From Candidatus Falkowbacteria bacterium (GTDB lineage: Bacteria > Patescibacteriota > Patescibacteriia > Patescibacteriales > WJLG01), in contig CAVVFV010000008.1 in the NCBI GenBank assembly GCA_963747695.1, forward strand, positions 75,592 to 139,591: a stretch of 64,000 nucleotides of DNA, in the 5' to 3' direction. The notes under the pieces are model-generated. The model was not told the origin of the DNA. It was given only the letters and a program-made list of their open reading frames with translations, and searched no databases. Within the stretch, counting starts at the first letter, position 1. Each line of letters starts with the position of its first letter. Shown piece after piece: positions 244-64,000 of this stretch. The position numbers and the translations under genes are program-made.

Positions 244-283
244 CAACATTAAAAGATAAAAAGCCGAACAAGGGGAAAAAGAG

Positions 284-32351: not shown

Positions 32352-32374
32352 AGTTAAATATATTTTGCTTAAAT

Positions 32375-32410: not shown

Positions 32411-32951
32411 GAATTAGAGACGATGCTTTTCATTTCCTTTTGTTCTTTTTTAATCCGGCAATTGCTTATTTTTTTGCCACTTTTTTTGGAAAAAGTGGCG
32501 CATCCCGCAAAAATGACGGGACAAGAAAAACTGCTCGCAGGAAAAATTTTGGGACTCTCCGCTAGGAAGCCTAGCAAAATTGCTAACCTCGTCGGCGCGG
32601 CGCCTCCTCAAACAACGCAATTTTGCACGGCTTCTGCGCTGCGCGTCTTAGCCAAAATTTTTCAATGCTCGCTATAATGAATTTTAGTTATAAGTTGGTT
32701 CTGGCAAGGTTTCTGGAAATTATTTTATTGCCAAGCTTTTGTATTTTGCTGTGGCCGGATTAAATCTATAATTCCCAGGCAGCTTGCTCACTGGGATGAA
32801 CTAATCGCGAGGGTCGGGGGAGGAATGAGGCGACCCGAGCGACATTGGAAGGGGGAGTCAATTTTAATTCGATTCGTGGATTTTGCAGTATTCGCGTAAA
32901 ATTAGTAGTATTCGTATTATATTTCTGCACAGCTTAGTAACAATCTGCCAG

Positions 32952-33070: not shown

Positions 33071-33241
33071 GAGGATCAGCCGCTGTTGTGGTTTATGTTC
33101 AATGGAAAAAAATTATCTGTCATAATCGGGTTTATTATCAAGCGAAGCGAGCGAAATGATCTCGCGCCTCGCCGGGATCGTTTCCGAGCGAGCGCAGAGA
33201 AAATACTCCGTCCGCTTGCGGCGGAGACACCTGCCAGAAAG

Positions 33242-36585: not shown

Positions 36586-37329
36586 ATGTTTACGTCTCGT
36601 AAGTATCCAATAAAAAGCATTGATATTTTTTTGCGGTTTTTGACGCCAGCCTTGATTGTCGTTAGTTTTTTTGTTTATTGCCATTCGGCGAAGGCCAATA
36701 GTGATATATTCGTAACTGAAAATACGACCTGGACTAGCGGACAAGTTGTCGTAATTAACGATAACACTAATTTGAATATTCAAGCGACCTTAACGATCGA
36801 ACCTGGCGTTGTTGTAAAATTCGGGAGCAATAGTTTGCTGGCCGTAAACGGAAGTTTGATTATTCAAGGTACCTCTGAAAATTTAGTGACTTTAACCTCT
36901 TTGCGAGACGATTTGGTTGGAGGCGATTCCAACGGCGACGGAGCTTCAACTTTCCCTTCGCCTGGGGATTGGGGCGGAATAATAGATTACGGAAAAATTA
37001 ACGCCGATTATGTTAAAATAAAATATGCTGGCGGTATTACGTTTGGTGGGACGAACATTTATTTTGAAGAAGTGGCATACAGTGGTGAAGCAATAACCCA
37101 TAGCATTTTTATCGATAATTTGGGGTATTTACTTTTTTGGCCTGGCAATTATTCCGCGTTTAAGATTAATTATTCCGATATTTATAATAATATTTATCCT
37201 CTTTCTTCCGGTTCAGGCGGTATTGATATGAGTAATAATTATTGGGGCAGTCCCGAAGGGCCGACATTGTATTATCCGGTGCCCGGAAGGGCGAATATTT
37301 TAGGAAATGTTGGTTATAAGCATTTTTGA
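36586..37329 (+). CDS. Secreted right-handed beta-helix (CASH/NosD-like) protein; possibly the N-terminal part of the next ORF
   Basis: Signal/anchor [20 protein letters not shown]. Body: [64 protein letters not shown] carries the NYWG motif common at the end of CASH-type beta-helices. The TGA stop (37327..37329) overlaps the TTG of the next ORF within a T5 run. Confidence 0.7.
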
Positions 37330-48440: not shown

Positions 48441-48636
48441 TTAAGATGCCAGACTGTACGCTTTTGAGCGGAATTTTTATGTTTGAAGTAGCAAACTTTA
48501 AGAGATTAGTTCGTTAAAATATAATCCGAATTCTATTAATAATATTCTAAGACTACGAGTTCTGCGAACCGCACAATGGTTTGTGGCGATGTTCGTAGTA
48601 TTCGGATATTTCGTAGGTTCGGATTATGTTTGTCCC

Positions 48637-51600
48637 ATGCCCAGAATAAAAAAAATTGCCAGCAGTCCGTTGTTCAGATTAGGATTTTTAATTTTGTTTT
48701 TAATCCTGTCTTTAGGCTACTTGAGACATAATTTTTCCGCCCGGGCTTCTGATGAGAGTATCAAATTATATCCGCAAAGTTTCAGTTTGGAAACCAATGC
48801 CGCTGATCTTGGCAATCCGGCGATCAAGGGCGGTTCGCTGTGGCAAAATCCGGAACAAGCCTTGAATGCTGAAACCGATCAAACGGCCGATTTTTCCGCA
48901 TTCACTGAAGATAATTCGGCAACTTTGGTTTTGGGAGCGGGAAGCTTGCTTAAAGTTGCCGCACCCAATGAAGAAAATCCTGCGACATCCAGCATCAATG
49001 ATGGATCAGACATAGCGACAACCTCCGGAGCGGCAAGCGAAGAGTCCCCGGTTGGTTCGGTGCCTGCCGCGCCGGATTCGGTTCCGGCCGATCAGGGTTC
49101 AGTGGTGAATCCGTCCGATTCCGGTTCATCCGGAGATGCGGCCGGTTCGGCAGGATCTTCCGCCGGCGCTGATGACCTGGCCGCGCCGGAAGTGCCGGTC
49201 ATTCAAAATCATCTGCCTGAAGCTAATGATGTTTCGCCGGAAAATTCGCCCAGTCAGCCGACCGATAGCGCCCCGTCAACTTCAGCAGATGATTCCGCCC
49301 CATCTTCTCCAGCCGCGCCGGCACCAGCTGCAGCTGATCCCGGAACCGGCGACAGTTCGGACTCGGGTCCGGTTTCGCTACTATCTAATTTTAAAATCGC
49401 CGCCGGAGAGATTGGAAAGTTTTGGCATAATCTGACTTCCGCTTCATTGGCGCTCGCGGAAAACGCGATTGGCGAGGCAACTTCTTCGCCCAACTCGGAT
49501 AATTCTTCGGCGGCGAATCCGGCCGAACTTAAAGACAGTATAATTTTTTCGGATTTTAACCTTGACAGCTATTCGCCGGAAAGCGAAATAACCAATGTCC
49601 AGCTCAGATTGTCGCTCTCGGCCAAGACTACCTTCAACTTTGATCATCTGTTAGTGGAATATTCCACCGGCGGCGATTGGCAGACGGCCGGTGATCTCTT
49701 CCTTAAAGGGAACGTCAGCAACCAGGCTAACGGCGGCTATTTCCTTTATGCCTTGCCGATTTTCAAATCCTGGGACGATATTAATAATTTGCGGATCAGA
49801 ATCAGCTATCAAAATAGCGAGCTTTCCGCCGCCGATCTGGCCGGTAAGGCGGCCAAGATTTATCTGGACGGGGTCTGGCTGGAAGTCGATTACAACCAAG
49901 GCGCGCTAACCCCGAAAAGCAAACAGGAGCTTACCGGTTTGCCCGGCGCGGAAGAACATTTTTTCAATCAGGCGCCATTGACCACGGACGGCAAGACGAT
50001 CGATTTCAATTATGGCGATACGACCGACGGCGAGAACTTGATCATCAAAACTGACCAGCAAAACTATACCGGCCTTACCGGCGCGCCGGTTTATTTCAGC
50101 GTGACCAACCAAGGATCGCAAACGGAAAATTTCGGCTTGCAAACTTATTTTCCGGCGGCCGACGGCAATATGACCGGTTTGGAAAAATTAAGCCGCCGAG
50201 CCGTAACTGCGGAAAATCCGACCCTGGGCGACCGCATTTACTATTGCGCGGCCGGTTGGCAAGCCGCAAGTTCGGCGATAACCGCGACAAGTTCTTCGAC
50301 TCAGGCGACCAGTTCGACCGATCAAGCCACCAGTTCTGCCAACGAGGCGACAAGTTCCACGGATGAGGCGAATAGTTCTGCTCTGCCGGCCACCGATTCC
50401 ACAAATGAAGATGCCAGTTCTACCGCAGCGGTGACCAGCTCCGCTCAGCTTTATTCTTGCCCGGAAAAAAATATCAGCCGGAAGTGCGACTCGCTCTCCA
50501 ATGATCAAAAAAAATGCCAGCAAAACCAGGTGATCATCGGCAGCTCCGCGACAATGGAAAACGTCGATCAATGGAATGCCAGTCAGGTCAACGCCGGCCA
50601 ACTGCCTGATCAGCGGAATCTCTGGCAGAAAATATGGGGCCTTGGTCCGCGCCGCAAAGCAGTACCGGGCGATTTTGTGCCTCGCGCCAGTTCGGACGCC
50701 GGACAATTCAGCATCCAACCGGGCGAAACTGAATATTTTAAAATGAATATTTCTTTCCCGATCGAATCTAAGGGCGAATTTTATCTCGAGACCGTCGGCG
50801 ATAAATCAGGCTATGGTTTGCTCGATCCGTGGTGGAATGCCAGCTGGGGTTACGAAGTCCCGGTGACTGTCACCTATGCCGGTTCCAATCCGTTGAGTAA
50901 TTTCCAAGTCGCGGTCACTATCAACACCGCCGCTTTGATCACTGCGGGAAAAATGAAAAGTGATTGCTCGGATATCGCTTTTGCCGATACCAATTTGTAC
51001 AACGACGCCAGTGAACTCTATTATTATTTGGAACCGGGGACTTGCAATAAAACTTATACCAAAGTTTGGGTGAAGATCCCTTCGATCACGGCCTCCAAAA
51101 CTATTTATCTTTTTTACGGCAACAGTTCCGCCACTTCCTATTCGAGCGGCGCCAATACCTTTGATTATTTTAATGATTTCGAATCGAGTGTTGATTTCAA
51201 TGCCGGCTTATTAAATCCGACCCGCACCACCAAAGCGGAAAGATACGGCAGTTACGGCTTGAACGGCAACGGTGGAAATAACAGCCGCTTGGAAACGATC
51301 AGCGGCTCGGCTTCGGGCAGAAATTTGATTTGGGAAGCTTGGATAAAAGGGGAGTCGAGCTCCACTATTTCTTCTTTGGCCGGCATCGCTATCGGCCATA
51401 CCGCGGGAAACACCACCGCCGGTTATCAGGCGGTAATCAGTAAAGTCGCCACCCATTATCTGGCGATTACCAAAGATTACGCCACCTCAACTGCGCTGGC
51501 TTTTTCCAATACAACGGTCATTGCCGACAACACTTGGTATTTTATGCAATTAAGCTGGCGTTCGACTAACGTGATCTGGGCCCAGGTTTTCGCCGGATCA

Positions 51601-53652
51601 ACCACTACGGCGCCGATTTTAAATTGTTCAACGACTGACGCTTCTTATACCAACGGCGAGTATGGCGTCGGAGTCCGCCAGATCGGCGATTGGGAAAATT
51701 ACCGCGTCCGCAAATATGCTTCCAGCACCCCTTCCATGGCGCTCGGTTCGGAAACGACGATCACTAATCATGTGCCGGCCAACCCCTCCTCGTTGCAGCA
51801 ATATCCGCTGACCACTTCCTCGCCCATCGGTCTCGGAGCCTGGACCACGCAAAGCACGGTGAATCTGGTGGCGACTTCGTCGGATAAAGATTCCGATCCT
51901 TTCGTGACTTATTATCAGCTGCAGCCCAGCGGTACCGGGTATACTACCTCGACCTCGACGCCGACTTCATTTTGCGATAACAATACCGCCTATTCTTCTT
52001 GCAGCAATAAGATCTGGGCCAACGCCACTACTACCTCCGGCTGGGCGGCTAGTTCCTCCAGTTATAAATATCGCCAGCCGATCATTGTTCAAATGGGGCA
52101 GGTCGCCGGCGCCCTTACCAGTTTTCCGATTTATTTGGATATGGCTCGGCTGGGCACCAGCAATCATTTCTGGTCGAACACCAAAAGGAATAGCGATGGC
52201 GGAGATATCCTGATCACCAATTCCACTGGTACCAGGTTGCCGGTCGAGGTAGTTGCTATTTCCACCTCCAGCAAAACCGGTGAAGTTTATTTCAAGGCTG
52301 ATGCTATCTCTTCATCCTCGAATATAACTTTCTATCTTTACTATGGCTCTTCAACCGCTTCGCAGCCGGCTTCGTCCACTACTTACGGCGCCCGCAGCGT
52401 CTGGTCCTCGGGCTACGCCGCCGTCTATCATTTCGGCAATATGGGTACGAAAGATTCCACCGGTCAGTTCAACGGGACAAACAGTATTACTTCCGGTACC
52501 AGTACTCCGTCCGCCGCTACCACGACGGCCATAATGGGCGGCGCCCGGCAGTTTTACGGCAATTCCTATATCAATCTGGGTCCCTCGCTTAAATTAAGGG
52601 CGCAGATGACGCTGTCCGCCTGGAGCCGGCCGGCGACGGGAAATGCCAATTGGGCCAAAATAATCGGCAAGATGGATCCGACCCACACCGCTCCTTTCAT
52701 TGTCTACGGTTTGACTTACGATGCCTCCAATCCGGATTTGCCCCAGGTAGAAATGACCGCCTCCACGACGAATACTCAGGAAGTTACTAAAGACACGACC
52801 GTTCCTACCAACAACGCCTATTTCTGGCTGGCGGGAACTTACGATGGCGCGCACCTGTTAGCTTATTACAATGGCCTCCAGCAAGGAACCACCGCTTTTA
52901 CCAATTCAATCGCCGACAATACTCAGCCGACCGAACTCGGTATGGCCTATTACGGCGGCGGCGGCGCACAAACCGACTATTACACGGGCGTGATGGACGA
53001 AGTCCGGATCCAGACGGTCGCCCGTTCGGGCAAATGGCTGCTCACCGAATATCATAACCAAAGCAGTCCCGGAACTTTCTATTCCACTTCTTCCTCCGAA
53101 GATTTTTATCTGACCAATAGCAAGAAAGCGGTAATGATCCCGAGCGTGCCCGACTCCACCTACCCCGCCGGATATAAATGGGAATCGATGGCCTGCGATT
53201 CGTGGGGCGGCTGTTCCAACTGGGCCATATTTAATTCTTCGCTTCCGAATTTTATGGTTGACTCCAATGCGCCGACTTTCTCCAACACTTTAGGTCTGCT
53301 TGCCTCCACCACCAATTCCATCAAACTGAGTTTCCCCACGGCGGCGACGGAAATAAATTTTAGCCAATATAAACTTTATTACCGCCTCGGTTCGACGACG
53401 CCGATCCATGAAACCGATTCGCTTTGGAGTTCGAGCTCGGATGGCAATCTCGGTTCGCGCACCTTTAACGGTAAGTCTTCGACCACCATTACCGGACTGG
53501 CTACGAACACGGTTTATAGTTTTTCACTTTGGGCTTATGATCTAGCCGGCCATAAAGCCAGTACGACTTTGGTTTGGGAGCGCACTGACCGTATCCCCAC
53601 GGTAACATTCAATTCGGCCGGGGAAAAAAAGAGACGCTTCGGGAAAAGTTAA
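48637..53652 (+). CDS. N-terminal fragment of the second giant gene (track ORF from GTG 48583; likely start ATG 48637)
   Basis: MPRIKKIASSPLFRLGFLILFLILSLGYL is the signal anchor. It is followed by an S/A/P/D-rich low-complexity region, a canonical DUF2341-like domain (WWNASWGYEVPVTVTY...SDIAFADTN...YYYLE...VWVKIPSITASKTIYLFYGN), then cassette b, FN3, and the start of a C module. The frame ends at TAA 53650..53652 just after the A7 run. Confidence 0.8.
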   Translation: MPRIKKIASSPLFRLGFLILFLILSLGYLRHNFSARASDESIKLYPQSFSLETNAADLGNPAIKGGSLWQNPEQALNAETDQTADFSAFTEDNSATLVLGAGSLLKVAAPNEENPATSSINDGSDIATTSGAASEESPVGSVPAAPDSVPADQGSVVNPSDSGSSGDAAGSAGSSAGADDLAAPEVPVIQNHLPEANDVSPENSPSQPTDSAPSTSADDSAPSSPAAPAPAAADPGTGDSSDSGPVSLLSNFKIAAGEIGKFWHNLTSASLALAENAIGEATSSPNSDNSSAANPAELKDSIIFSDFNLDSYSPESEITNVQLRLSLSAKTTFNFDHLLVEYSTGGDWQTAGDLFLKGNVSNQANGGYFLYALPIFKSWDDINNLRIRISYQNSELSAADLAGKAAKIYLDGVWLEVDYNQGALTPKSKQELTGLPGAEEHFFNQAPLTTDGKTIDFNYGDTTDGENLIIKTDQQNYTGLTGAPVYFSVTNQGSQTENFGLQTYFPAADGNMTGLEKLSRRAVTAENPTLGDRIYYCAAGWQAASSAITATSSSTQATSSTDQATSSANEATSSTDEANSSALPATDSTNEDASSTAAVTSSAQLYSCPEKNISRKCDSLSNDQKKCQQNQVIIGSSATMENVDQWNASQVNAGQLPDQRNLWQKIWGLGPRRKAVPGDFVPRASSDAGQFSIQPGETEYFKMNISFPIESKGEFYLETVGDKSGYGLLDPWWNASWGYEVPVTVTYAGSNPLSNFQVAVTINTAALITAGKMKSDCSDIAFADTNLYNDASELYYYLEPGTCNKTYTKVWVKIPSITASKTIYLFYGNSSATSYSSGANTFDYFNDFESSVDFNAGLLNPTRTTKAERYGSYGLNGNGGNNSRLETISGSASGRNLIWEAWIKGESSSTISSLAGIAIGHTAGNTTAGYQAVISKVATHYLAITKDYATSTALAFSNTTVIADNTWYFMQLSWRSTNVIWAQVFAGSTTTAPILNCSTTDASYTNGEYGVGVRQIGDWENYRVRKYASSTPSMALGSETTITNHVPANPSSLQQYPLTTSSPIGLGAWTTQSTVNLVATSSDKDSDPFVTYYQLQPSGTGYTTSTSTPTSFCDNNTAYSSCSNKIWANATTTSGWAASSSSYKYRQPIIVQMGQVAGALTSFPIYLDMARLGTSNHFWSNTKRNSDGGDILITNSTGTRLPVEVVAISTSSKTGEVYFKADAISSSSNITFYLYYGSSTASQPASSTTYGARSVWSSGYAAVYHFGNMGTKDSTGQFNGTNSITSGTSTPSAATTTAIMGGARQFYGNSYINLGPSLKLRAQMTLSAWSRPATGNANWAKIIGKMDPTHTAPFIVYGLTYDASNPDLPQVEMTASTTNTQEVTKDTTVPTNNAYFWLAGTYDGAHLLAYYNGLQQGTTAFTNSIADNTQPTELGMAYYGGGGAQTDYYTGVMDEVRIQTVARSGKWLLTEYHNQSSPGTFYSTSSSEDFYLTNSKKAVMIPSVPDSTYPAGYKWESMACDSWGGCSNWAIFNSSLPNFMVDSNAPTFSNTLGLLASTTNSIKLSFPTAATEINFSQYKLYYRLGSTTPIHETDSLWSSSSDGNLGSRTFNGKSSTTITGLATNTVYSFSLWAYDLAGHKASTTLVWERTDRIPTVTFNSAGEKKRRFGKS
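50281..50385 (+). repeat. Imperfect 21-nt (7-aa) tandem repeat x ~5 encoding (Q/E)ATSS(T/A)(D/N)
   Basis: CAGGCGACCAGTTCGACCGAT / CAAGCCACCAGTTCTGCCAAC / GAGGCGACAAGTTCCACGGAT / GAGGCGAATAGTTCTGCTCTG (50302..50385), preceded by a degenerate unit. Confidence 0.7.
50830..51755 (+). other. DUF2341-like domain + concanavalin-A-like lectin domain (cassette a of the second giant gene)
   Basis: WWNASWGYEVPVTVTYAGSNPLSNFQVAVTINTAALITAGKMKSDCSDIAFADTNLYNDASELYYYLEPGTCNKTYTKVWVKIPSITASKTIYLFYGNSSA, followed by a ~190-aa beta-rich segment ending ...GEYGVGVRQIGDWENYRVRKY. Confidence 0.65.
52039..53085 (+). other. DUF2341-like + LamG-like cassette b (close paralogue of cassette 1 of the first giant gene)
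   Basis: FWSNTKRNSDGGDILITNSTGTRLPVEVVAISTSSKTGEVYFKADAISSSSNITFYLYYGSSTASQPASSTTYGARSVWSSGYAAVYHFGN compares with FWQHTKRNNDGGDIVITNAAGTRMPVEVVSISTSTAAGEVWFRADSISSTSPATYYLYYGSSTATQVASTTTYGARAVWSNGFAAVYHFGN. Confidence 0.7.
53624..53630 (+). other. A7 homopolymer carrying the frameshift that splits the second giant gene
   Basis: GCC GGG GAA AAA AAG AGA CGC TTC GGG AAA AGT TAA in frame 0. With six As the reading becomes GCC GGG GAA AAA AGA GAC GCT TCG GGA AAA GTT AAT TTT..., which continues the module. Confidence 0.85.
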
Positions 53653-53755
53653 TTTTAATTTCACCGTCAACGATCCGGATGGCGATAATTCGCTGACGGC
53701 GCAGGCGGATTATTATCTTGATGCCAATTGTCATACGACCAAATATAAGGCGACG

Positions 53756-56700
53756 ATGGATCAGACCGGCGCCGATACGACGGCTACTTATAATCCCCCC
53801 AATATTTTAAACAGCAATAACGAACAGATCGGCAATGCGACCGCGTATCTGCAGACTTCCGGGGGCGCCAATACAATCAGCACTTACTGGCTTTCGAAAA
53901 CTGATTTGGCTACGGCGACTGGTACGATTTGCGTTAAGCTGGTCGTCAACGATAACCGCGGCGGCAATGATACTGTCGCTACCACCAGCGTTTACATCGA
54001 TAATTCGCCGCCGATTAATGTGGGCAGTCTGAATTATTCCAAAAAGACCGGCAGCGCGGTCACGGTGGCGTTCGGAACCGCGGCTCATGACAATAATTTC
54101 CGCCAGTATAAAATTTACTACAAGGCCGCCGTTTCGGGCGTCAAAGAAACCGATTCAGTTTTCAGTTCCACCAGCGATGTTAATTTATGGAGTGTCAATT
54201 ACGGCGGCGCGGCTACCACCACCATTACCGGTTTGCTGGGAGCGACCCAATATGTTTTTAATATCTGGGCTTATGACCAATATGGCAACAAAGCCAGCGG
54301 CACGACCGAATTGGCCGTCACTACAAAAAATACGCCGGCAGTTGCCGGAAGTCTGGCTCAATATCTTGCCGATGGCAGCACCGTGCTCACCAATAATACT
54401 TGGATCAATACCAATGAAGTAAATCTTTACGCCACTTCCACCGATCCGGATAGCAGTTCGGTAAAAATATATTATCAATTGGCTACGTCAAGCGGTTCGT
54501 ATCTTACCGTCACCACCACTCCGGCCAGCGCCTGTGCCTCCGGCGCAACTTATTCCGCTTGTCCGGGGCGAGTCTGGTATTCCAGCCACGCGATCAAAGC
54601 CGATCTGCCGGGAATCCCGGACGGCACCTATAAGTGGCAGGCTTTGGCTTGCGATGAGAACGGCTGTTCCAGAAATTGGCAGCAATTCAGCACCACCGTG
54701 CCCAATATCAAGATCGACACGACCGCGCCGACGATCCCGGGAAATTTGATCTTCAATTCCAAAGGCGTTACTACCGTAAAATTCAATTTTGGCGCGCCGA
54801 CCTCGGATTTAACTTTTGTCCAGTATAAGATTTTTTATAAGCAGGGGACCAGCGGCGTCAAACAAACCGATTCGCTCTGGAGTTCGAGCTCGGATTCCAA
54901 CTTGGGTAATATTTCTTTCAACAATAAAGCTTCAACCACTATTACCGGTTTGACCACGGGGTATACATATGTCTTTAATATTTTTGCTTATGATATGTTT
55001 GGGCGCGTGGCTTCGGCGACCAACGAAGCGCTGGTCAGCTTGTCCAATTATCCCGCGCTGCCTTATTCGTTGACCCAATATTCGCCGGCCACTTCGACAA
55101 TTTTGTCGAATGGCGTTTTTGTTAATAACAATACGATGTACCTTTATGGTACTTCTTCCGATGTCGCGGCGCCGCTGCTTTATTATGAATTATTGGGCAA
55201 TAGTTATTCTTTTACGACTGCGACCTCGGTACCTTCCACTTTCTGTTTGAATGGTACCGCTCCGGCCAGCTGTATTGGAAGCATCTGGAGCAATTACGCC
55301 AAGGTCAGCGGTTGGTATGATTACAGCTATAAATATCGGACCGAACTGATCGTTCCGGCCGCGCAAATCTCCGGCGGCTTGTCCAATTTTCCAGTCTATT
55401 TGAATCCGGCCGTTCTGGGTCAGGGCAATGTTTTCTGGTCGCACGTCAGGAGCGCGAGCGGCGGCGATCTTTTGGTCACCGATTCAGCCGGCAATCGTCT
55501 GCCGCTTGAAGTCGTAACTTTTTCCACCTCCACTCATAGCGGGGAATTATATTTCCGCGCCACGACTTTGACTCATGCGTCGGAAAATGATTTTTATCTC
55601 TATTACGGTTCCTCGACCGCCACCCAGCCGGCCTCATCGACGACTTATGGTTCGCAGAATGTCTGGAGCAACGGCTATACGGCTGTCTGGCACTATGCGG
55701 GTTCTTTGCGCGATTCCACCTGGCATAGCATCAACGGCACCAACAGCGGTTCAGCGGCCACAACTTCGTCTTCCAAACTCGGCAACACTTCCCAAAGTTT
55801 TAAAGCGACGGGGCCGAATTATATCAATTATGGCGCTCCGACCGCGCTTAATATCCATGGCAACAATCCGGTGACTCTTGAAAGCTGGTTTCAATACACT
55901 CTTTTGGCCGCCGCTTATCAGGAAGTAATCGGCAAGGGCGACACGCAATATGGCATCCAAAAAACTAACGCTAATCCCGGGACCCAGCAATTTCAGGTAT
56001 ATGATACCACTTGGCGCAACGTCAATTCGAATGTTACAGCTTTGCTCAATACTTGGACATTAGTCGCCGGCACTTATACCGGAGTATCGGGCGGACCGAA
56101 CACTGTTTTTGTTAATGGCGTTGCCATAGCCAGCACCACTTCCACTCTTATCAATGATGACGGCGCTAATTTCTGGGTTGGCGCGAATTCGGCCGCCACC
56201 CAACCTTTCACGGGCTTGATCGATGAAGTCAGGATCTCTTCCACCACCCGTTCTGACGCCTGGATGACTACCGAGTATGCGAACCAGAACGCGCCAAAAA
56301 CTTTTTTTACGACTTCATCGGAAGGATATTATCTGATTGTTTCCAGTAAGGCGATAAAAATTCCGTCGATCTCTGATGGCAATTATAAATGGCACGCGCT
56401 CGCCTGCAATTCCGTCGGTTGTTCCAATTGGGCGCCTTATAACGCGGTAACGCCGAACTTTATTATCGATACGATTGTTCCGACCGCGCCCGGCAAACTG
56501 ACCCTGGTCAGCCGCAATACTAACAGCATCACGCTGGGATTCGGTTCGCCGACCTTCGAAGTAAACTTCAGTCAATATAAGATTTTCTATAAGCAGGGAA
56601 CGAGCGGCGTCAAAGAAACCGATACCTTGGTCAGCTCTTCCAGCGATTCCGATTTGGGCAGCAAGACTTATAACGGCGCGCCGTCGATCACCTTCAACGG

Positions 56701-59700
56701 TTTGACCGCCAATACCCAATACGTTTTCAATATCTGGGCTTACGATAAGGCGGGCCATAAAGCGAGTTCGACTGCCGTAACTTTCCAGACCTCCAACGCG
56801 CTGACGCAAGTTTATTATTATTCGAGCGGCGCCTCATCAGGCTGGATCAATCCGGCCTTTGCCTGGGACAATACCAACAATACTTACGCTTATCGCAATG
56901 TTCCGGCAAATTCGGCCGATGACTCGGCTAATTATCTGCAAGGTACGGCCAATAATGCCGCGACCACTTCCCAGACTATTTTGGGCGTCGAATTGGGACT
57001 GGAAGGATATGTCAACGATCCGAACAATGACAGCTATAAATTAACTCCGCTGTTTTCCGGTCTGACCGCTGGCAGCACTTATGCTCTGGCCGGTTCGCTT
57101 TTTGGCCGGACCGACAGCGACACGACTTATTACAGCGATATCACCGACGATCCCAACGCACCCGCCGTCTGGACCTGGAACGACATCGTGAACCTTGACG
57201 CTAAAATTTTCGCCGCCAACGCCTCTTCGAGCGTCAACACCGTTGACGTCGATCAGATCAGGTTGCGCGTCACCGTGGATTCCTATCCGAATAGCGCCGC
57301 CAGTTTGAATCAGTATCGGAGCGATAAGGTTACGGCGATTTCCAACCAGGCTTACTTTAATCAGAACAATATTGTCTTATCAGGCCAGGCTACTGATCCT
57401 GATCCTTCGGAGTCATTATCGATCTATTATCAATTCGTCCCCACGGGCCAGAATTTCGCCACCAGCACGGCGGTTCCGGCCGGAGCCTGCGTCAATGGTA
57501 CGAATTATTCGAGCTGCAGTTCTAAAATTTGGGTGGCTTCATATTCCGGCGCGCCGGCTGATTTTAGCAGCACTCCTTACACCGGAACTTCTTCGGTCAC
57601 CAGTATCCCCGACGGGACTTATAAATGGCAAGCGCTGGTTTGCGATGCCAGTAATGTCTGCTCGGCCTGGGCGGGTTTTAATGCGACGACACCCAATATT
57701 ACGATCGATACCACGGCTCCGGCAGTTCCGGGCAAATTGGTTTTTAGTTCGCATACTTCCGGTTCGATTAATATTCATTTCGGCGCCGCCACGACTGATA
57801 CTAATTTTTACCGTTATCAGATTTTTTACAAAAAAGGTTCGACTTCGCCGGTTACCGAAAGCGATTTATTGCAAACCGATACCAATCTCAACTATATCAA
57901 TTATAATGGCGCCGTTACTACCACGGTGGTCGGGTTGGCTAAAAGTTCCTGGTACACTTTCAATATCTGGGCTTACGATCTGGCCGGCAATAAAGCCAGC
58001 GCGACCGTGGCGATGATCGCGAGCACCACCTCCGGCTATTACTTAACTCAAACTTCTTACTTGATAGAAAACGACGATAGCGTCATCGGTGTCAATGCCA
58101 ACTCGGCGCCCGGGCTGGCGGGAGTACCTTTAGCCAGCGTGGAAAAGGGCCAGCGCTTGAACGCCCGCGTTCAGCTCCAAAATACCGGCGGCGACCAGAC
58201 TTATAATAAACGTTTTAAATTGCAATATGAAAATAATACCGACGCGCCGGGAATTTGGAATGATGTGGGCGCGGCCACGGCGATCAGCTATTCTTATGGA
58301 TTGTCCGGCGCCAACGGCGACGCGATAACTTCGCGCCAGGCGGCGGTCAATGGCTATACTTGGGCGAACGGCCTTTGGCAGGATGAAACCAACTTGACCA
58401 ATATGTATAACTTGGCGGTTAATAATTATACGGAATTCGTCTTCGCGGTGCAGACGGCCAACGCGGCTGACGGCAAAACTTATCGCTTGCGGCTGATCGA
58501 CGGCACCGGCAGTTCGACACTCGACGTTTATTCGGCTTATCCGACTTTGACGATGGTGGCGAACGACACCAAAAGATATAGCAAAGACAGCCTATCCAGT
58601 TTGCCGGTCAATTCGGTTGACCTGACTTATTTCCTGGATAAAGCCGGATACACGGCAGTGTCCGCTGACGATTCCAGTTACGACATAATGACCAGTATTG
58701 CCGGAAAATACCCGGTTAATAATTTTGATGCCTTTGACGGGAAAAGCACCTACGCCTTGAATGTTTCTTGGAACGGCCAATCCAGCGTCGCGCCAAGTTC
58801 CAATTATGTCAACTTGCAGATTTATCGTTTCGGTTCGATAAATAAATGGGTCTCCGTGGCCTCAAACAGTACGGCGGCGCTCAATACCGATTTCAGTTTG
58901 AGTGGCTTGATCGATTATCACATCAGCGATTATTTATCCGGCAACTATGTTTTCTGGCGGGTTTATCAGCAGCCCGGCGCGGAAACTTTACGTTCGGATT
59001 ATTTGTCGTTCACCACTACGACGCCGGCGGCGTATGTTACCGGCCGGCATTACCGCTGGCGCAACGACGACGCTTCGGCCGGTTCCTGGCGGGAAGCGCA
59101 AGATACGCCCGACCCGACTTTGGGCACGGCCATTGCTAAAAAAACCAATCTCCGGCTGCGCTTGTCGTTCACGGATACTAAAGCCGGATCGGCCACCAAT
59201 TACGGTTATGGTTTGCAATACGCGACGACGACTACCAACTGCGCCGGCGCTTTGAGTCCCTGGTATCAGGTGAAGAGCACCGCCACTTCCACTTACCAAT
59301 TTCAGATTGCCACTTCCACGCAGTATAGCGACGCCAGTACTACCCGGGCTTGGTTGTCCACTGACAGTTATGCTTATGTGGCCGGCCGGATGGTCAATGG
59401 TCCGTCCGCCACTTCCGCCGCCATAACTTTGGCTCAAGATAACGACACGGAAGTCGAATTTACCATTAAGGCAACCGTCAATGCCAAGGCCGGCCAAACG
59501 TATTGCTTCCGCGGCACCAAAAATAATACAGCGCTTGACGCTTACGACCGTTATGCCGAATTGACCGTGGCTGGAACCACCAACACCGCTCCGTCGTTTA
59601 CCTCAGTGCCTTCCGATGGCGGGTCAGCCACTAATACGCCGACTCTTTACGGGCAGAACGTGAATTTTTCGGCGACCGCCTCTGATCCGCAGACCGATCA

Positions 59701-61120
59701 ATATTATCTGGCAATCTGCCAGACCAGCGCGATCACGGCGGGCAACGGCGGAGCGCCGACTTGCCCGGGGGGTTCGTGGTGCATTTCCGCCCGGGCTTCT
59801 TCGACTGCCGCCGCCAGCTGCTCGGTTTCAACCAACCATCTTTATTCCGAATATTATGATTGGTACGGCTTCGCCTGCGATTATCATTATGGCGCCGGCA
59901 TCGCCCAGTGTTCTCCGGTATCGCAAGGAACTCCGGGTTCGCCCAACGCTTCAACTTTCCGCGTCGACCATCCGCCGACTTTCAGCGCGGTCACCACCCT
60001 CACCGATTATAAAGATCCGGGCAGCTTAATTAATATTCAGGCGACCGCGGCCGATACGGATACTAACAACACTTTGAATTATTTTGTCTGTTCGACCAAT
60101 GGCGCGACTTCGGCCGGCTGTACCGGCGGAGCGGGCAATACCTTCTGTTCGGTAACCGCCACCACCAGCGCCAATCCGATCTGTCATGATCAGACACCGA
60201 TCCCTTATCCAAGCGGAACTTATAATTATTACGCTTTTGTTTTTGACAACTTCACTTTAGGCGCCACGACCAGTCCGCAAACCGGCAGCTTCCATATTAA
60301 TAATACGGCGCCATCGCTCGGCTCGTTAGCGCTCAATGGCAACAATGACATAACCTTGAACATCAAGGGCGCCGCGGATAAGCAGGTGCAACTGGTTGAC
60401 ACTTCGGTCACCGATCTTAACGGCTGCCAGACTTTGGTTTCAGCGACCGGCATGATCTATCGCACCGATCTCGGCTATGCTTGCGGCGCCGATGATAATA
60501 ACTGTTATCAGATCACCACGGCTAATTGCGTGAAAAGCGATTGTTCGGGTTCAAGCGACGCCATCGCCACCTATACCTGTACCGCCAATTTTAAATATTT
60601 CGCCGATCCGACCGACAATTCCACCAGTAATCCTTGGAGCGCGGATAATTGGACGGGCCGCTTGCAGGTTTACGACGGCTCCAACTACGCGGCCACTACT
60701 TCGCCCGCGGTTGAAGTTAATACCAACTTGGCGCTAAATGTTCCGCAAACCAAGATCGATTTTGGCAAGCTGGACGCCGGCACTGATACCGGAACGACCA
60801 ACCAATCGGTCACGGTGGTTAATTACGGCAACTCGCCGATCAATAGCGATGTGTCCGGAACTGATTTGACCGGCCAGATTCCCAGCTCGCTTGTCTCCAC
60901 TTACATTCACTGGGATCTGACGCAAAATTTTTCTTATGCATCCGGCAACACTTTGAAGAATGGTGGAGAAGTGGTTAGCGTTAACCTGGCCAAACCGACC
61001 AGCGTCGCCACCACTTCCAACCTGATTTATTGGGGCATCGGCATTCCGCCCGCTGCTACACATACTTATTTCCATGGTTCAAGCACTTTTGCCGCGGTTT
61101 TGAATGGTTCGGGATGGTAA
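53756..61120 (+). CDS. C-terminal fragment of the second giant gene (the track ORF starts at the first Met; homology continues upstream to ~53633)
   Basis: 2,454-aa ORF. It carries the rest of the C module, FN3 and A modules, cassette c (55311..56310), two RWRNDD-type modules (58034..58560, 59048..59570), Cys-rich modules (~59590..60310), and a C-terminal domain with LALNVPQTKIDFGKLDAG...IHWDL. Confidence 0.85.
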   Translation: MDQTGADTTATYNPPNILNSNNEQIGNATAYLQTSGGANTISTYWLSKTDLATATGTICVKLVVNDNRGGNDTVATTSVYIDNSPPINVGSLNYSKKTGSAVTVAFGTAAHDNNFRQYKIYYKAAVSGVKETDSVFSSTSDVNLWSVNYGGAATTTITGLLGATQYVFNIWAYDQYGNKASGTTELAVTTKNTPAVAGSLAQYLADGSTVLTNNTWINTNEVNLYATSTDPDSSSVKIYYQLATSSGSYLTVTTTPASACASGATYSACPGRVWYSSHAIKADLPGIPDGTYKWQALACDENGCSRNWQQFSTTVPNIKIDTTAPTIPGNLIFNSKGVTTVKFNFGAPTSDLTFVQYKIFYKQGTSGVKQTDSLWSSSSDSNLGNISFNNKASTTITGLTTGYTYVFNIFAYDMFGRVASATNEALVSLSNYPALPYSLTQYSPATSTILSNGVFVNNNTMYLYGTSSDVAAPLLYYELLGNSYSFTTATSVPSTFCLNGTAPASCIGSIWSNYAKVSGWYDYSYKYRTELIVPAAQISGGLSNFPVYLNPAVLGQGNVFWSHVRSASGGDLLVTDSAGNRLPLEVVTFSTSTHSGELYFRATTLTHASENDFYLYYGSSTATQPASSTTYGSQNVWSNGYTAVWHYAGSLRDSTWHSINGTNSGSAATTSSSKLGNTSQSFKATGPNYINYGAPTALNIHGNNPVTLESWFQYTLLAAAYQEVIGKGDTQYGIQKTNANPGTQQFQVYDTTWRNVNSNVTALLNTWTLVAGTYTGVSGGPNTVFVNGVAIASTTSTLINDDGANFWVGANSAATQPFTGLIDEVRISSTTRSDAWMTTEYANQNAPKTFFTTSSEGYYLIVSSKAIKIPSISDGNYKWHALACNSVGCSNWAPYNAVTPNFIIDTIVPTAPGKLTLVSRNTNSITLGFGSPTFEVNFSQYKIFYKQGTSGVKETDTLVSSSSDSDLGSKTYNGAPSITFNGLTANTQYVFNIWAYDKAGHKASSTAVTFQTSNALTQVYYYSSGASSGWINPAFAWDNTNNTYAYRNVPANSADDSANYLQGTANNAATTSQTILGVELGLEGYVNDPNNDSYKLTPLFSGLTAGSTYALAGSLFGRTDSDTTYYSDITDDPNAPAVWTWNDIVNLDAKIFAANASSSVNTVDVDQIRLRVTVDSYPNSAASLNQYRSDKVTAISNQAYFNQNNIVLSGQATDPDPSESLSIYYQFVPTGQNFATSTAVPAGACVNGTNYSSCSSKIWVASYSGAPADFSSTPYTGTSSVTSIPDGTYKWQALVCDASNVCSAWAGFNATTPNITIDTTAPAVPGKLVFSSHTSGSINIHFGAATTDTNFYRYQIFYKKGSTSPVTESDLLQTDTNLNYINYNGAVTTTVVGLAKSSWYTFNIWAYDLAGNKASATVAMIASTTSGYYLTQTSYLIENDDSVIGVNANSAPGLAGVPLASVEKGQRLNARVQLQNTGGDQTYNKRFKLQYENNTDAPGIWNDVGAATAISYSYGLSGANGDAITSRQAAVNGYTWANGLWQDETNLTNMYNLAVNNYTEFVFAVQTANAADGKTYRLRLIDGTGSSTLDVYSAYPTLTMVANDTKRYSKDSLSSLPVNSVDLTYFLDKAGYTAVSADDSSYDIMTSIAGKYPVNNFDAFDGKSTYALNVSWNGQSSVAPSSNYVNLQIYRFGSINKWVSVASNSTAALNTDFSLSGLIDYHISDYLSGNYVFWRVYQQPGAETLRSDYLSFTTTTPAAYVTGRHYRWRNDDASAGSWREAQDTPDPTLGTAIAKKTNLRLRLSFTDTKAGSATNYGYGLQYATTTTNCAGALSPWYQVKSTATSTYQFQIATSTQYSDASTTRAWLSTDSYAYVAGRMVNGPSATSAAITLAQDNDTEVEFTIKATVNAKAGQTYCFRGTKNNTALDAYDRYAELTVAGTTNTAPSFTSVPSDGGSATNTPTLYGQNVNFSATASDPQTDQYYLAICQTSAITAGNGGAPTCPGGSWCISARASSTAAASCSVSTNHLYSEYYDWYGFACDYHYGAGIAQCSPVSQGTPGSPNASTFRVDHPPTFSAVTTLTDYKDPGSLINIQATAADTDTNNTLNYFVCSTNGATSAGCTGGAGNTFCSVTATTSANPICHDQTPIPYPSGTYNYYAFVFDNFTLGATTSPQTGSFHINNTAPSLGSLALNGNNDITLNIKGAADKQVQLVDTSVTDLNGCQTLVSATGMIYRTDLGYACGADDNNCYQITTANCVKSDCSGSSDAIATYTCTANFKYFADPTDNSTSNPWSADNWTGRLQVYDGSNYAATTSPAVEVNTNLALNVPQTKIDFGKLDAGTDTGTTNQSVTVVNYGNSPINSDVSGTDLTGQIPSSLVSTYIHWDLTQNFSYASGNTLKNGGEVVSVNLAKPTSVATTSNLIYWGIGIPPAATHTYFHGSSTFAAVLNGSGW
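55311..56310 (+). other. DUF2341-like + LamG-like cassette c (close paralogue of cassette 2 of the first giant gene)
   Basis: DLLVTDSAGNRLPLEVVTFSTSTHSGELYFRATTLTHASENDFYLYYGSSTATQPASSTTYGSQNVWSNGYTAVWHYAGSLRDSTWHSINGTNSGS is nearly identical to the cassette 2 sequence at ~4080..4380. Confidence 0.7.
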
Positions 61121-61126
61121 CCGGCG

Positions 61127-61232
61127 AATATCCAATATCAAATAATCAATATCAAAAATTTTTCGCGATAAATTTTATAATATTTTGATATTTGAATATT
61201 TTTTGGATATTGGATATTTGATATTGGATATT
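61127..61232. promoter_or_regulatory. 17-bp perfect inverted repeat plus arrays of (T)TGGATAT / TTGATAT heptamers in the intergenic region upstream of the FN3 gene
   Basis: AATATCCAATATCAAAT (61127..61143) is the reverse complement of ATTTGATATTGGATATT (61216..61232). On the right side, TTGATAT / TTGAATAT / TTGGATAT / TGGATAT / TTGATAT / TGGATAT occur in tandem (61185..61231). On the left side the complementary ATATCCA / ATATCAA / TATCAAA are present. Confidence 0.55.
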
Positions 61233-61256
61233 AAATTTCTTACTTATCGCTTATTT

Positions 61257-61265
61257 TGTTATAAT
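61257..61265 (+). promoter_or_regulatory. Candidate extended -10 element TGtTATAAT for the FN3 gene
   Basis: TG at 61257..61258 and TATAAT at 61260..61265. It lies 39 nt upstream of ATG 61304, and AGGGGA (61295..61300) is a likely RBS. Confidence 0.45.
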
Positions 61266-61303
61266 GAAGATAATCAAGCCGAGTATTATCGACAAGGGGA
61301 ATT

Positions 61304-62884
61304 ATGAAAAGATATTTGCTGATCATTAATATTCTGTTGCTTCTTTTGGCATTGGCCGCGAGTGTGATCGTTGGCTGGTTTGTGTTGAACAGTTTCCGCG
61401 CCAACGGGGCCGCCGCTGCTACCAACGACAAGATCACGCCGATAATTTTCAATTCCAAGATCGACGATATTACCGCCAGTTCAGCGACAATTTCCTGGCA
61501 GACGGACAAACAGGCGGATTCGCTGGTCAATTACGGTTTGAATCGCGATTACGGAATGGTGCGCGATCCGCTGCCGGACAAAACCACCCATAAAATTGTT
61601 TTGGATACTTTGCTGCCCGACACCACTTATTATTTCCGCATCATTTCTACGGACTCCGAAGGCAACCAGGCGATCTCCAGCGATTTTTCCTTCGTGACTC
61701 CTGGTACGCCAAGTAGCGAGACATCAGCGCAGCCGGGTCAATCTCCGGGTCAGTCGCAAACGCCGGGCCAGTACCCGGGAAGTTCTACCCAAGTTTCCTC
61801 GAGCACCGAATCCAATAATCAGCAAGTGACCCAAATTTTGGAAGAAATCAATAAAGTTACCGACCAAAAGGCTTTGCAGGTGATCCAGAACCAGATTCAG
61901 GAACAAGCTCAGCAGGTTACGGAAAAACTGCAAATCATTCTGGACCAGGTCAATGTGGAAACCGGCGTCGATTATGCCATTATCAAATGGCAGACCAACG
62001 AGGCCGCCAATTCGACCGTCTCGCTGGTAACCGAAAAAGATTTTAACGGCAATAGCGCCAATCCTTATGTCTGGCAGGAGGGAAATTACGACGAACAAGC
62101 TACCGATCATACCGTGCAGATCAATGGCCTGACGCCGTCGACGACTTATCATTTTCAGGTCAGTTCCAAAACCAGTTTGGGCGTAACCGCCCAGAGCACC
62201 GATCAGGTTTTTGTTACCAAGTCGATTCTGCCGGAAATTTACAATATCACCATTGCCAAGATCGAAGAGGACGCCGCCACCATTAATTTTGCCACTAACA
62301 TCCCTTGTTCCGCTTATATCGAATACACCAATCTGGATACCGGCGAAAGCAAATTGCAGGGTAGCTCCAATTACTCGATTGTCCACTCGATAGTTATCGA
62401 CAATTTGAAATTCGATACTTACTATTCGGCGGTGATAACGGCCGAGAGCGAAGCCGGCGACCGCGTGCAGAGCGCGCCGCTAACTTTCCTGACCATTAAA
62501 GATGTGGTGCCGCCGGTAATTTCCAAAGTCAATACCGAATCGACTCTGTATCCGGGAGCTGATACTAAAGTCCAAACGATCGTCAGCTGGGAAACGGACG
62601 AAGAAGCGGTTTGCCAATTCTCTTTTCACCAGGGGTTCAATGCCACGGAAAAAGTCGACGTCTTGCCGCTGGAGACGGATTATTCGCTCAAGCACGTGCA
62701 GGTGACCACCAACTTATTACCCTCGACGGTTTATAAATTCTGGGTCGAATGTTATGACAAAGTCGGCAATAAATCGCGGACCAGCGATTACATTATGCTG
62801 ACGCCCACCCGCGAACAAAATATCATTGATATTATCTTGAAGAATTTCGAAACCACCTTCGGCTGGGTCAATGGGGGAAAATAA
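61304..62884 (+). CDS. N-terminally membrane-anchored protein with four FN3-like domains and a Q-rich coiled-coil linker (526 aa)
   Basis: TM LLIINILLLLLALAASVIVGWFVL. FN3-like units: ITASSATISWQTDKQADSLVNYG...LLPDTTYYFRIISTDSEGN; YAIIKWQTNEAANSTVSLV...LTPSTTYHFQVSS; AATINFATNIPCSAYIEYT...LKFDTYYSAVITAESEAGD; VSWETDEEAVCQFSF...LLPSTVYKFWVECYDKVGN. Confidence 0.85.
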   Translation: MKRYLLIINILLLLLALAASVIVGWFVLNSFRANGAAAATNDKITPIIFNSKIDDITASSATISWQTDKQADSLVNYGLNRDYGMVRDPLPDKTTHKIVLDTLLPDTTYYFRIISTDSEGNQAISSDFSFVTPGTPSSETSAQPGQSPGQSQTPGQYPGSSTQVSSSTESNNQQVTQILEEINKVTDQKALQVIQNQIQEQAQQVTEKLQIILDQVNVETGVDYAIIKWQTNEAANSTVSLVTEKDFNGNSANPYVWQEGNYDEQATDHTVQINGLTPSTTYHFQVSSKTSLGVTAQSTDQVFVTKSILPEIYNITIAKIEEDAATINFATNIPCSAYIEYTNLDTGESKLQGSSNYSIVHSIVIDNLKFDTYYSAVITAESEAGDRVQSAPLTFLTIKDVVPPVISKVNTESTLYPGADTKVQTIVSWETDEEAVCQFSFHQGFNATEKVDVLPLETDYSLKHVQVTTNLLPSTVYKFWVECYDKVGNKSRTSDYIMLTPTREQNIIDIILKNFETTFGWVNGGK

Positions 62885-62952
62885 CAATTATAAATTAAAA
62901 GTTAAAAATTAAAATATTTGTAATTTTGCATGTTTAACTTTTAATTGAACAG

Positions 62953-64000
62953 ATGGAACCAGTAATACAAACCAGGCACATGGACGTGGTCTATAACCTG
63001 GGCAAGAAGAATGAGTTTAAAGCGATCAACGATCTTAATCTGGATATCTATCCGGGCGAGTTCATCGCGCTCTTCGGCCCGTCCGGCTGCGGCAAATCCA
63101 CGGTCTTTTACAGCATCTTGGGAATCCTTCAGCCCTCCTCGGGAGAAATTCTCGTCAAAGGCGAAAATCCTTACGCTTTCTCGCCGGCGGAAATGGTCAA
63201 TTATCAGTCGCGATCCATCGGCATCATCTATCAGGCTTTTTTCCTGATCAACTCCATTTCAGTGATGGATAACACTGTTTTGCCGCAGACTTTTTTGGGC
63301 ATTCCCTGGGCGAAGAGGAAAATCCGCGGCCAGGCTCTCCTGGATCGTTTCGGGATCGGCAATAAGGCGGAAAATTATCCCAACCTGATGTCCGGCGGAC
63401 AGCTGCAAAGAGCTTCGGTGGCCCGATCGATGGTAAATAATCCGGATATTTTATTGGCTGACGAACCGACCGGAAATTTGGATTCGAAATCCTCCGATCA
63501 GGTTATGCAGGTGCTTGACGATATCAACCAGAAAGACAAGAAGACCGTGGTCATGATCACTCATAACGCTTCGCAGCTGGTTTGGTGCCACCGGGTTTTC
63601 TATATGAAGGACGGAGCGCTTCTGCGGACCGTTCCCAATCCGGATAAAAAGCAGATCGTCAAATTCGATCGGCAGAAAGTTCTGGTCACCGAGATTGAAC
63701 TCTTGTCCAAGATGTTCCCTTATTTCGAACCGGAAGATTTGAAAGTAAAAAGCCTGGTCAATTATTTGACGCAGGATCTGGATTTTTTGCAGATCGACCG
63801 CCTGGAAAAAGCGGTGAAGCTGATGATTATGCGTACGATGGGGGAGGATAATTTTTCCGAAATTTTGAGCGCGCCGCTTTCACGCGGCGGCGTGGGATTG
63901 CCCAAAAGCCGGGCTAAATTTTTGGCGGACAAGGTAATGCAGATCTTAAAGCATTCCGAAGATGTCCGGCGCTATCGGCGGCGGATGAATGAAGGAACTT
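62953..64000 (+). CDS. ABC transporter ATP-binding protein (MacB/LolD-like ATPase with a C-terminal extension); 3' end beyond the window
   Basis: Not in the ORF track because it has no stop inside the window. My translation from ATG 62953: MEPVIQTRHMDVVYNLGKKNEFKAINDLNLDIYPGEFIALFGPSGCGKST (Walker A) ... NLMSGGQLQRASVAR (ABC signature) ... ILLADEPTGNLD (Walker B) ... VMITHN (H-loop). The frame stays open to base 64000. Confidence 0.85.
   Translation, partial: MEPVIQTRHMDVVYNLGKKNEFKAINDLNLDIYPGEFIALFGPSGCGKSTVFYSILGILQPSSGEILVKGENPYAFSPAEMVNYQSRSIGIIYQAFFLINSISVMDNTVLPQTFLGIPWAKRKIRGQALLDRFGIGNKAENYPNLMSGGQLQRASVARSMVNNPDILLADEPTGNLDSKSSDQVMQVLDDINQKDKKTVVMITHNASQLVWCHRVFYMKDGALLRTVPNPDKKQIVKFDRQKVLVTEIELLSKMFPYFEPEDLKVKSLVNYLTQDLDFLQIDRLEKAVKLMIMRTMGEDNFSEILSAPLSRGGVGLPKSRAKFLADKVMQILKHSEDVRRYRRRMNEGT

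Follow-up and report, generated by a model that had tools for sequence, protein, structure and literature searches.

A one-base homopolymer difference that splits a giant surface-protein gene of a Patescibacteria bacterium is probably a consensus miscall

The window analyzed here, 64,000 nucleotides from a 331,635-bp contig deposited for Candidatus Falkowbacteria bacterium (GenBank GCA_963747695.1, CAVVFV010000008.1), contains two consecutive open reading frames (48589 to 53652 and 53756 to 61120) that are put out of frame with each other by a run of seven adenines. This raises the question of whether the interruption is a dead gene, a variable tract, a site of programmed recoding or simply an error in the deposited consensus. 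The run (Table 1) is preceded by GGGG and followed by G. The upstream frame reads ..FNSAGEKKRRFGKS* and closes at the TAA in 53650 to 53652. The downstream frame has a TAA at 53603 to 53605, continues as HSIRPGKKRDASGKVNFNFTVNDPDGDNS.. and remains open up to 61120; these two stops confirm a previous sequence-only reading in which both frames were open over exactly 53606 to 53652. The codons at the run are GAA AAA AAG, which gives the heptamer the phase A_AAA_AAG, also as that reading had described it.

Table 1. Features at the split gene (positions within the window).
Feature	Position	Strand	Remarks
A7 homopolymer	53624..53630	+	A6 in the separate Logan assembly of run ERR11748453
Zone with frames 1 and 2 both open	53606..53652	+	The frame change must fall inside; the homology of the module points to the A run
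Upstream half, frame 1	48589..53652	+	Ends with 7 out-of-frame codons (KRRFGKS) and TAA
Downstream half	53756..61120	+	2,454 aa as annotated, counted from its first ATG; frame open already from 53606
TGA ending the -1 frame	53694..53696	+	63 nt past the A run
C module cut by the extra A (RTDR..IDNSPP), ~146 aa	53581..54020	+	Aligned with 10 to 11 gene 1 modules and L002

The upstream half has 1,687 aa if translated from the deposited start (ATG at 48589) or 1,671 aa from the ATG at 48637, one residue fewer than the 1,672 aa first given for this fragment. From the second of these starts, the N terminus (MPRIKK..) is a hydrophobic signal or anchor, and the repaired protein begins with MPRIKKIASSPLFRLGFLILFLILSLG. 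DUF2341 and LamG-like domains were found in the upstream half, and fn3, LamG-like and DUF2341 domains in the downstream half, which lacks its own signal peptide. Removing one A yields a single ORF from 48637 to 61120 that encodes 4,160 aa, with no stop in the 2,498 codons past the shift and with DUF2341, LamG-like and fn3 domains passing the Pfam cut-offs (PF10102, PF13385 and PF00041). The repaired junction, ..NSAGEKRDASGKVNF.., matches without gaps 11 paralogous modules of the neighboring gene (gene 1, 10,238 aa) and is 62% identical over 229 aa to a related Patescibacteria gene; the peptide across the intact junction is NSAGEKRDASGK. The earlier claim that one extra A splits a single gene is thus borne out by the repaired ORF and by the 11 modules. 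The interrupted module is an Ig-like beta-sandwich repeat with the conserved motifs NDPDxD, NDNRGG and IDNxAP. Its AlphaFold model (pLDDT of 65) is all-beta and had just generic Ig-like matches with TM values of 0.55 or less, so that the fold is a generic Ig-like sandwich of moderate confidence, with no specific family indicated.

As a whole, the repaired gene (gene 2) resembles the giant DUF2341/fn3/FhaB-type exoproteins of Patescibacteria, such as those of Patescibacterium danicum, which likewise exceed 4,000 aa and combine DUF2341, fn3 and LamG-like domains (PMC11809585). It shares with the giant DUF2341/fn3 surface proteins of this group the domains, the length above 4,000 aa, the N-terminal signal or anchor and the Patescibacteria origin. 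From the domains, a role in adhesion or host interaction is presumed for it, as for those exoproteins. However, the relatives of gene 2 in the databases are partial, and no full-length homologue was found. Searches centered on the junction and on the N terminus returned partial relatives at no more than 60 to 61% identity, located on short contigs, and no orthologue with both halves fused; the top N-terminal homologue was likewise from a Patescibacteria bacterium. Two syntenic loci (L004 and L005) begin 3' of the junction. The ABC ATPase that flanks the gene and its counterpart in the Patescibacteria MAG STD1_31 share 88% identity, and the gene order is the same in both.

The deposited NCBI/ENA sequence was compared with Logan, a per-run de Bruijn assembly (k=31) of the public run ERR11748453. 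Logan drops singleton k-mers, so that only those with two or more occurrences are kept, and of competing paths it takes the one with more support (PMC12424806). Contig L001, the left end of which sits on 31- to 34-mers common to gene 1, aligned to positions 53394 to 64000 with a single gap and no mismatch in 10,607 columns. The gap, at 53624, is the A run, which has six adenines in L001; the k-mers carrying A6 were counted two or more times and make up the path that Logan kept, and the gene called by Logan (2 to 7726 of L001) passes through the site uninterrupted. A second contig, L013, was 100% identical to 24546 to 32530 (7,985 bp) and had no gap, leaving 1 difference in 18,592 bp for both contigs together, at the A run. 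In the protein collection, the 1,687-aa and 2,454-aa halves were recorded from NCBI and ENA only, and 11 other proteins of the window (114 to 954 aa) from both NCBI/ENA and Logan. An A6 allele exists in otherwise identical sequence and restores both the frame and the module, and the two half-proteins are found in the deposit alone. The comparison that had been proposed for this site could be approximated by the Logan assembly, with its A6 and uninterrupted gene; the relatives offered partial sequences only.

Because a separate assembly of an otherwise identical strain has no extra A, the run most likely represents an assembly error rather than a biological frameshift, and we consider it probable that A7 is a consensus homopolymer miscall over an intact gene. 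The real organism would then have the codons GAA AAA AGA (E-K-R), i.e., an A6 run, within one gene of ~12.5 kb (48589 or 48637 to 61120) for a modular surface protein of ~4,160 aa with signal/anchor, DUF2341, LamG-like, fn3 and Ig-like modules. A long-read consensus overcounting the homopolymer by one base would generate A7 and, with it, the artificial calls of 1,687 and 2,454 aa, and neither ribosomal nor transcriptional recoding would be necessary. The window includes an exact direct repeat of 1,014 bp and many repeats of at least 200 bp within gene 1; as all of these are resolved, the deposit probably derives from long reads. One-base homopolymer indels that fragment gene calls are a typical residual error of long-read assemblies (Sereika et al. 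2022, PMC9262707), and here too a length difference of one base splits an intact ORF while the other length restores frame and homology. In contrast to the cases described there, the rest of the window is almost free of such errors. In addition, R10.4 and HiFi data at good coverage usually resolve runs of 7 (PMC9262707).

About 19 of the 20 homopolymers of at least 7 nt that could be compared between the assemblies agree, including two T8 runs. The deposit is otherwise highly accurate, and a random error at precisely this site would be an infrequent event. We rejected a systematic undercalling of 7-mers by Logan (with A7 as the true length), as the other compared 7-mers and 8-mers agree. Mis-polishing from the paralogous modules is unlikely, since every 31-mer around the run is unique within the window. 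Homopolymers of at least 7 nt amount to 21 A runs and 19 T runs in the window, which also has three further in-phase A_AAA_AAG heptamers, all of them in other ORFs, so the A7 run is statistically unremarkable within it.

The agreement at about 19 of 20 runs also indicates that neither assembly miscalls 7-mers systematically, and this is a point for a different explanation, in which the population holds a real mixture of A6 and A7 and each pipeline reported a different allele. Such a mixture would arise by slipped-strand mispairing, with A6 as the ON state (a full-length adhesin) and A7 as the OFF state (a secreted stump of 1,671 aa), and could be adaptive phase variation or plain polymorphism. 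We regard it as possible but less likely than an error. Homopolymer-tract contingency loci are known from surface-protein genes of Neisseria, Haemophilus, Campylobacter and Mycoplasma; gene 2 likewise encodes a giant surface protein, a class of gene known to be phase variable in other bacteria, its frame hinges on the length of a homopolymer, and two lengths occur in otherwise identical DNA. The sole discordance between the assemblies in 18.6 kb falls on the one run that sets the reading frame. Two further observations fit this explanation: gene 2 is mildly enriched in A runs relative to synonymous-codon shuffles (8 against 4.6 for runs of at least 6, and 2 against 0.36 for runs of at least 8), and both assemblies show a second surface-protein gene split at a T5 run.

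On the other hand, contingency tracts usually have 8 to 9 nt or more and lie near the 5' end or promoter, whereas this one is short (6 or 7 nt) and located 40% into the ORF, and its lengths are known from assemblies alone. All 11 paralogous modules and the relative L002 lack an A run at the junction position, so there is no sign of selection for keeping it, and the run is a by-product of the codon choice for E-K-R. The long, usually 5'-proximal tract under selection that is typical of contingency loci was not what we found. A6 in one assembly and A7 in another of otherwise identical DNA is an outcome that error and true variation both yield; if the two assemblies share reads, the discordance shows only that reads are mixed here, as real heterogeneity would also make them. 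Logan would collapse a bubble of ~60 nt, so a mixture is not directly evidenced by it (PMC12424806). Exact-pattern scans for the junction with A6 to A8 found no match in GTDB representative genomes or JGI metagenomes; consequently, these provide no third independent copy of the junction and no second sample of the organism. A still more doubtful proposal is that A6/A7 works as a genuine ON/OFF switch and that a single clonal population of this Patescibacteria bacterium contains both alleles.

The second split gene, for a lipase, is interrupted at a T5 run (37323 to 37329), and Logan shows the same split. Here, two ORFs would be joined by a -1 shift at the T5 itself (37323 to 37327). This one may be the more real feature of the two and, as it is reproduced in Logan, real homopolymer frameshifts may occur in this genome.

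If A7 were instead the sole allele, the gene would be a fixed, true pseudogene, dead save for a secreted N-terminal fragment of 1,671 aa, and the A6 of Logan would be wrong. The deposited consensus does carry A7, and a gene of this size offers mutation a large target. We nevertheless judge this very improbable, given that Logan drops singleton k-mers and takes the path with more support (PMC12424806), and that it gives the same length as the deposit for all other homopolymers compared in L001 and L013. The C-terminal 510 aa of the downstream half are 72.5% identical to those of L002; together with the 2,498 stop-free codons after the shift, this indicates that the downstream half is not decaying, and a lesion would need to be very recent. 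Thus, among the options offered by the sequence-only reading, the A6 of Logan and the halves found only in the deposit favor a homopolymer error, leave A6/A7 heterogeneity as possible and argue against a fixed dead gene.

If A7 is real, programmed recoding could restore the full-length protein at some frequency, by a +1 slip of tRNA-Lys (from AAA to AAA, then AGA) or by transcriptional slippage losing one A. Either would give exactly the GEKRDASGK product; the heptamer is intrinsically slippery, and a GGGG stretch lies 2 nt 5' of the AAA codon. Heptamer and phase are identical to those of the dnaX-type -1 frameshift. The likeness to dnaX is nonetheless one of sequence only, as the -1 frame, GKKETLREKLILISPSTIRMAIIR*, ends here after 21 codons and is not the frame of the downstream gene, and the site has neither unusual downstream structure nor an internal Shine-Dalgarno at the dnaX spacing. 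The slip favored by the heptamer is hence unproductive, as had been claimed with a TGA about 60 nt away, and -1 frameshifting was rejected on the basis of this stop (Table 1) and of the +1 frame of the downstream gene. The accompanying claim that only a +1 shift or a deletion of 1 nt restores the protein holds in the frame translations, the repaired ORF and the module alignment. A stimulatory RNA was also rejected, since the downstream fold is ordinary: its minimum free energy is -25.2 kcal/mol, compared to an average of -22.6 for the shuffled sequences (z = -0.80), and 45 out of 200 of these did equally well. Neither Rfam nor tRNA scans gave a hit in the window.

For the +1 route, AAG follows in the 0 frame and the stop is reached 7 codons later, so a stop or a codon known to be hungry is absent from the shift site. 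Neither the stop or slow A-site codon nor the conservation in orthologues typical of prfB was found. L002 and the 11 paralogous modules read straight through without an A run, so neither the paralogues nor the relative conserve it, and the otherwise identical strain has A6. Regarding the transcriptional route, slippage is known to rescue poly(A) frameshifts in endosymbionts, and dnaX of Thermus has an A9 run; here too, an mRNA short of one A would be back in frame. Efficient transcript slippage, however, is known at runs of ~9 nt or longer, compared to the A7 of this site, and the existence of an A6 DNA allele makes recoding unneeded. We find this the least credible of the explanations, with hardly any weight.

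If a consensus miscall is the right reading, the two deposited CDS (1,687 and 2,454 aa) ought to be annotated as a single gene for a giant surface protein of ~4,160 aa, and the site would be no basis for a recoding or pseudogene story. The case also shows that homopolymer frameshifts in long-read MAGs can be checked quickly and independently with per-run Logan contigs. To our knowledge, there is no documented case of contingency-locus behavior of the homopolymer-slippage type in the Candidate Phyla Radiation (CPR), and phase variation of a CPR adhesin would be of biological interest only if accurate reads showed a true mixture of A6 and A7. Were that the case, this tract and the T5-split lipase gene would mean that slippage at homopolymers lets an ultrasmall episymbiont vary its giant surface proteins.

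The deposited record carries an A7 run in the second giant gene (gene 2), and re-reading the frames and rebuilding the ORF bore out what the sequence-only reading had stated about the run, the frames, and the one-base repair. Frame 1 (possible starts at 48583, 48589, and 48637) reads ..TVTFNSAGEKKRRFGKS* to a TAA at 53650..53652; after a TAA at 53603..53605, frame 2 stays open up to 61120, reading ..GKKRDASGKVNFNFTVNDPDGDNS.., so that both frames are open over exactly 53606..53652. Removal of one A produces a single ORF of 4,160 aa, from 48637 to 61120. The N-terminal fragment, previously counted as 1,672 aa, actually has 1,671 aa; with the deposited annotation's start it has 1,687 aa. The 0-frame codons at the run are GAA AAA AAG (phase A_AAA_AAG), and the −1 frame runs for 21 further codons before a TGA at 53694..53696, in agreement with the earlier statement that a −1 slip would be unproductive.

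Homopolymer and split-gene features in the window
Feature	Position	Strand	Description
A7 homopolymer	53624..53630	+	Flanks GGGG and G
Upstream ORF	36586..37329		247 aa, signal peptide, beta-helix-like; ends CAT TTT TGA (TGA 37327..37329)
Downstream ORF	37326..40190		954 aa, LCAT-like lipase and Ig-like domains, no signal peptide; −1 frame
Junction	37320..37329		T5 at 37323..37327; −1 frame opens only at 37320

An exact-protein match of the 526-aa gene next downstream retrieved L001, a 17,220-bp Logan contig from run ERR11748453. Its positions 1-10606 aligned to 53394..64000 with no mismatches and one gap, located in the A7 run; L001 carries A6, and its gene call (2..7726) crosses the site unbroken. 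A second contig of the same run, L013, was 100% identical to 24546..32530 with no gap, and the two together differ from the window at one position in 18,592 bp. In Logan, every run is assembled on its own at k=31 without once-seen k-mers, and Minia3 simplification and Prodigal gene calls follow (PMC12424806). The left end of L001 falls on 31-34-mers shared with gene 1, the neighboring giant gene, as expected for a de Bruijn branch point, and both facts make L001 a read-level view that does not depend on how the deposited consensus was made. Of the window proteins, eleven (114, 147, 154, 193, 247, 301, 335, 359, 526, 584, and 954 aa) are recorded in NCBI, ENA, and Logan; the 1,687-aa and 2,454-aa halves of gene 2 appear only in NCBI and ENA, on a 331,635-bp contig from which the window must have been taken. 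Exact-pattern scans for the junction (A6 to A8) in GTDB representative genomes and JGI metagenomes found no further data set with this organism. The 421-aa product of ORF 33095..34360 is also recorded in NCBI and ENA and absent from the Logan record, unlike its neighbors. An A7 run lies in this ORF 12 nt past its start codon (33106..33112), and L013 ends short of it, at 32530; the absence may be merely a different start call or another run-length difference. Start calls also differ at 31254..32351 (354 aa versus 365 aa).

Of the three options left by the sequence-only reading (error, phase variant, or pseudogene), homopolymer error is favored by the Logan A6 and by the restriction of the split halves to the deposit, and the A7 split is most likely not a real feature. 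The true run would be A6 (GAA AAA AGA, E-K-R), with A7 a one-base homopolymer error in a long-read consensus that split the gene call. A direct repeat of 1,014 bp with identical copies (16826..17839 and 21194..22207) and hundreds of repeated 200-mers lie in gene 1, and a contiguous 331-kb contig across such repeats indicates that the deposit was probably built from long reads. One-base homopolymer indels that fragment gene calls are the typical residual error of long-read assemblies (PMC9262707). A fixed pseudogene with a real A7 would require a Logan error at precisely this run and at no other, which makes it very unlikely. However, if deposit and Logan go back to one read set, all that the disagreement shows is a mixture of reads at the site.

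True A6/A7 heterogeneity in the population, and with it the phase variant, therefore retains some weight, although we consider it rather unlikely. In its favor, the deposit is otherwise accurate, agreeing with Logan at about 19 of 20 comparable homopolymers of at least 7 nt, two T8 runs included. Gene 2 is also mildly enriched in A runs, with eight of A≥6 against 4.6 in synonymous-codon shuffles (22 of 500 reach eight) and two of A≥8 against 0.36 (15 of 500 reach two). The A8 runs lie at 48648..48655 (codons 4-7 of the MPRIKK start) and 50507..50514. Gene 1, in contrast, avoids long A runs (two of A≥7 against 6.6 expected, none of A≥8 against 5.4; all 500 shuffles had at least the observed number); AAA AAG encodes seven of its KK pairs. 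Finally, a second surface-protein gene is split, at a T5 run. With one added T (T6), or after a −1 slip on T_TTT_TGA, its two ORFs would become one, and homologous proteins align across the join, P0023 colinearly and P0011, P0033, and P0045 in BLAST alignments. Both products are recorded in Logan as well as in NCBI/ENA, so this frameshift is reproducible, unlike that at A7. The RNA fold downstream is unremarkable (z = +0.67). The split may reflect a genuine frameshift, −1 recoding at a shifty stop, or a systematic error common to both assemblies.

Both halves of gene 2 contain DUF2341, LamG-like (Laminin_G_3), and fn3 domains, and a hydrophobic signal/anchor lies at the N terminus. The shift lies close to the start of a repeated module of ~146 aa (RTDR..IDNxAP), present in at least 11 copies in gene 1 (284..31000, 10,238 aa); the repaired junction, NSAGEKRDASGKVNFNFTVNDPDGDN, aligns without gaps to 11 of 11 of these. 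The module was modeled as an all-beta Ig-like sandwich (pLDDT 65, moderate confidence) with generic matches only. The A run reflects the codon choice GAA AAA AGA for E-K-R, and paralogous modules have E-R-T, E-R-I, E-E-T, E-K-V, etc. at this position, with A5 as their longest run; nothing in these alignments suggests selection maintaining the tract. Recoding on a real A7 is highly improbable: the site is conserved neither in paralogous modules nor in a relative, has no stop or hungry codon, and is followed by an ordinary RNA fold (z = −0.80), the −1 slip that A_AAA_AAG favors gives no product, and the A6 allele makes recoding unnecessary.

The source organism can be assigned to Patescibacteria (CPR), because the flanking ABC ATPase shares 88% identity with its counterpart in MAG STD1_31 (JAQUPS010000004.1), with a common gene order. 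The gene in STD1_31 reads through the equivalent module without a break (NSAAERIDATGKVDFSFTANDPDSDD; 62% identity over 229 aa). Database relatives of gene 2 are fragments only, an expected result where repeat-rich genes are assembled from short reads. Over the C-terminal 510 aa of its product, identity to the relative L002 is 72.5%; to L004 and L005 it is 48 to 56% over >2,000 aa. Since the 7.4 kb downstream of the shift is free of stop codons and conserved in these relatives, the lesion is either not real or very recent. L004 (CAZJPG010000001.1) and L005 (CAYNAR010000003.1) come from MAGs labeled “uncultured Gammaproteobacteria,” yet have a Patescibacteria-type order (a giant gene of ≥2,763 aa, then a ~540-aa protein, an ABC ATPase, and an FtsX-type protein; 48 to 69% identity to window proteins), and the label looks wrong.

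In gene 1, the copies of the 1,014-bp repeat are 4,368 bp apart, equal to three module periods of ~485 aa. The exact repeat points to duplication within the gene, or gene conversion, in the very recent past. The last ~170 aa of the gene 1 product (30490..30997) have a homologue in the next, small ORF, in its C-terminal half (31776..32348; 34% identity, E = 1e-20). The ending ..AGDYS..Y...PTY is common to both, and a C-terminal domain is therefore shared between the giant protein and the stand-alone 354/365-aa protein. Next, at 33.1 to 36.5 kb, come three proteins of ~335 to 420 aa that are paralogous and carry a C-terminal membrane anchor; one weakly matches the WxL-interacting-protein family. 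The region has the look of an operon for a cell-surface complex.

Earlier work on Patescibacteria describes giant DUF2341/fn3 exoproteins, with a proposed role in adhesion or host interaction (PMC11809585). That the length of the A run really switches a CPR adhesin ON and OFF is an unlikely reading, to which we would give a small probability.
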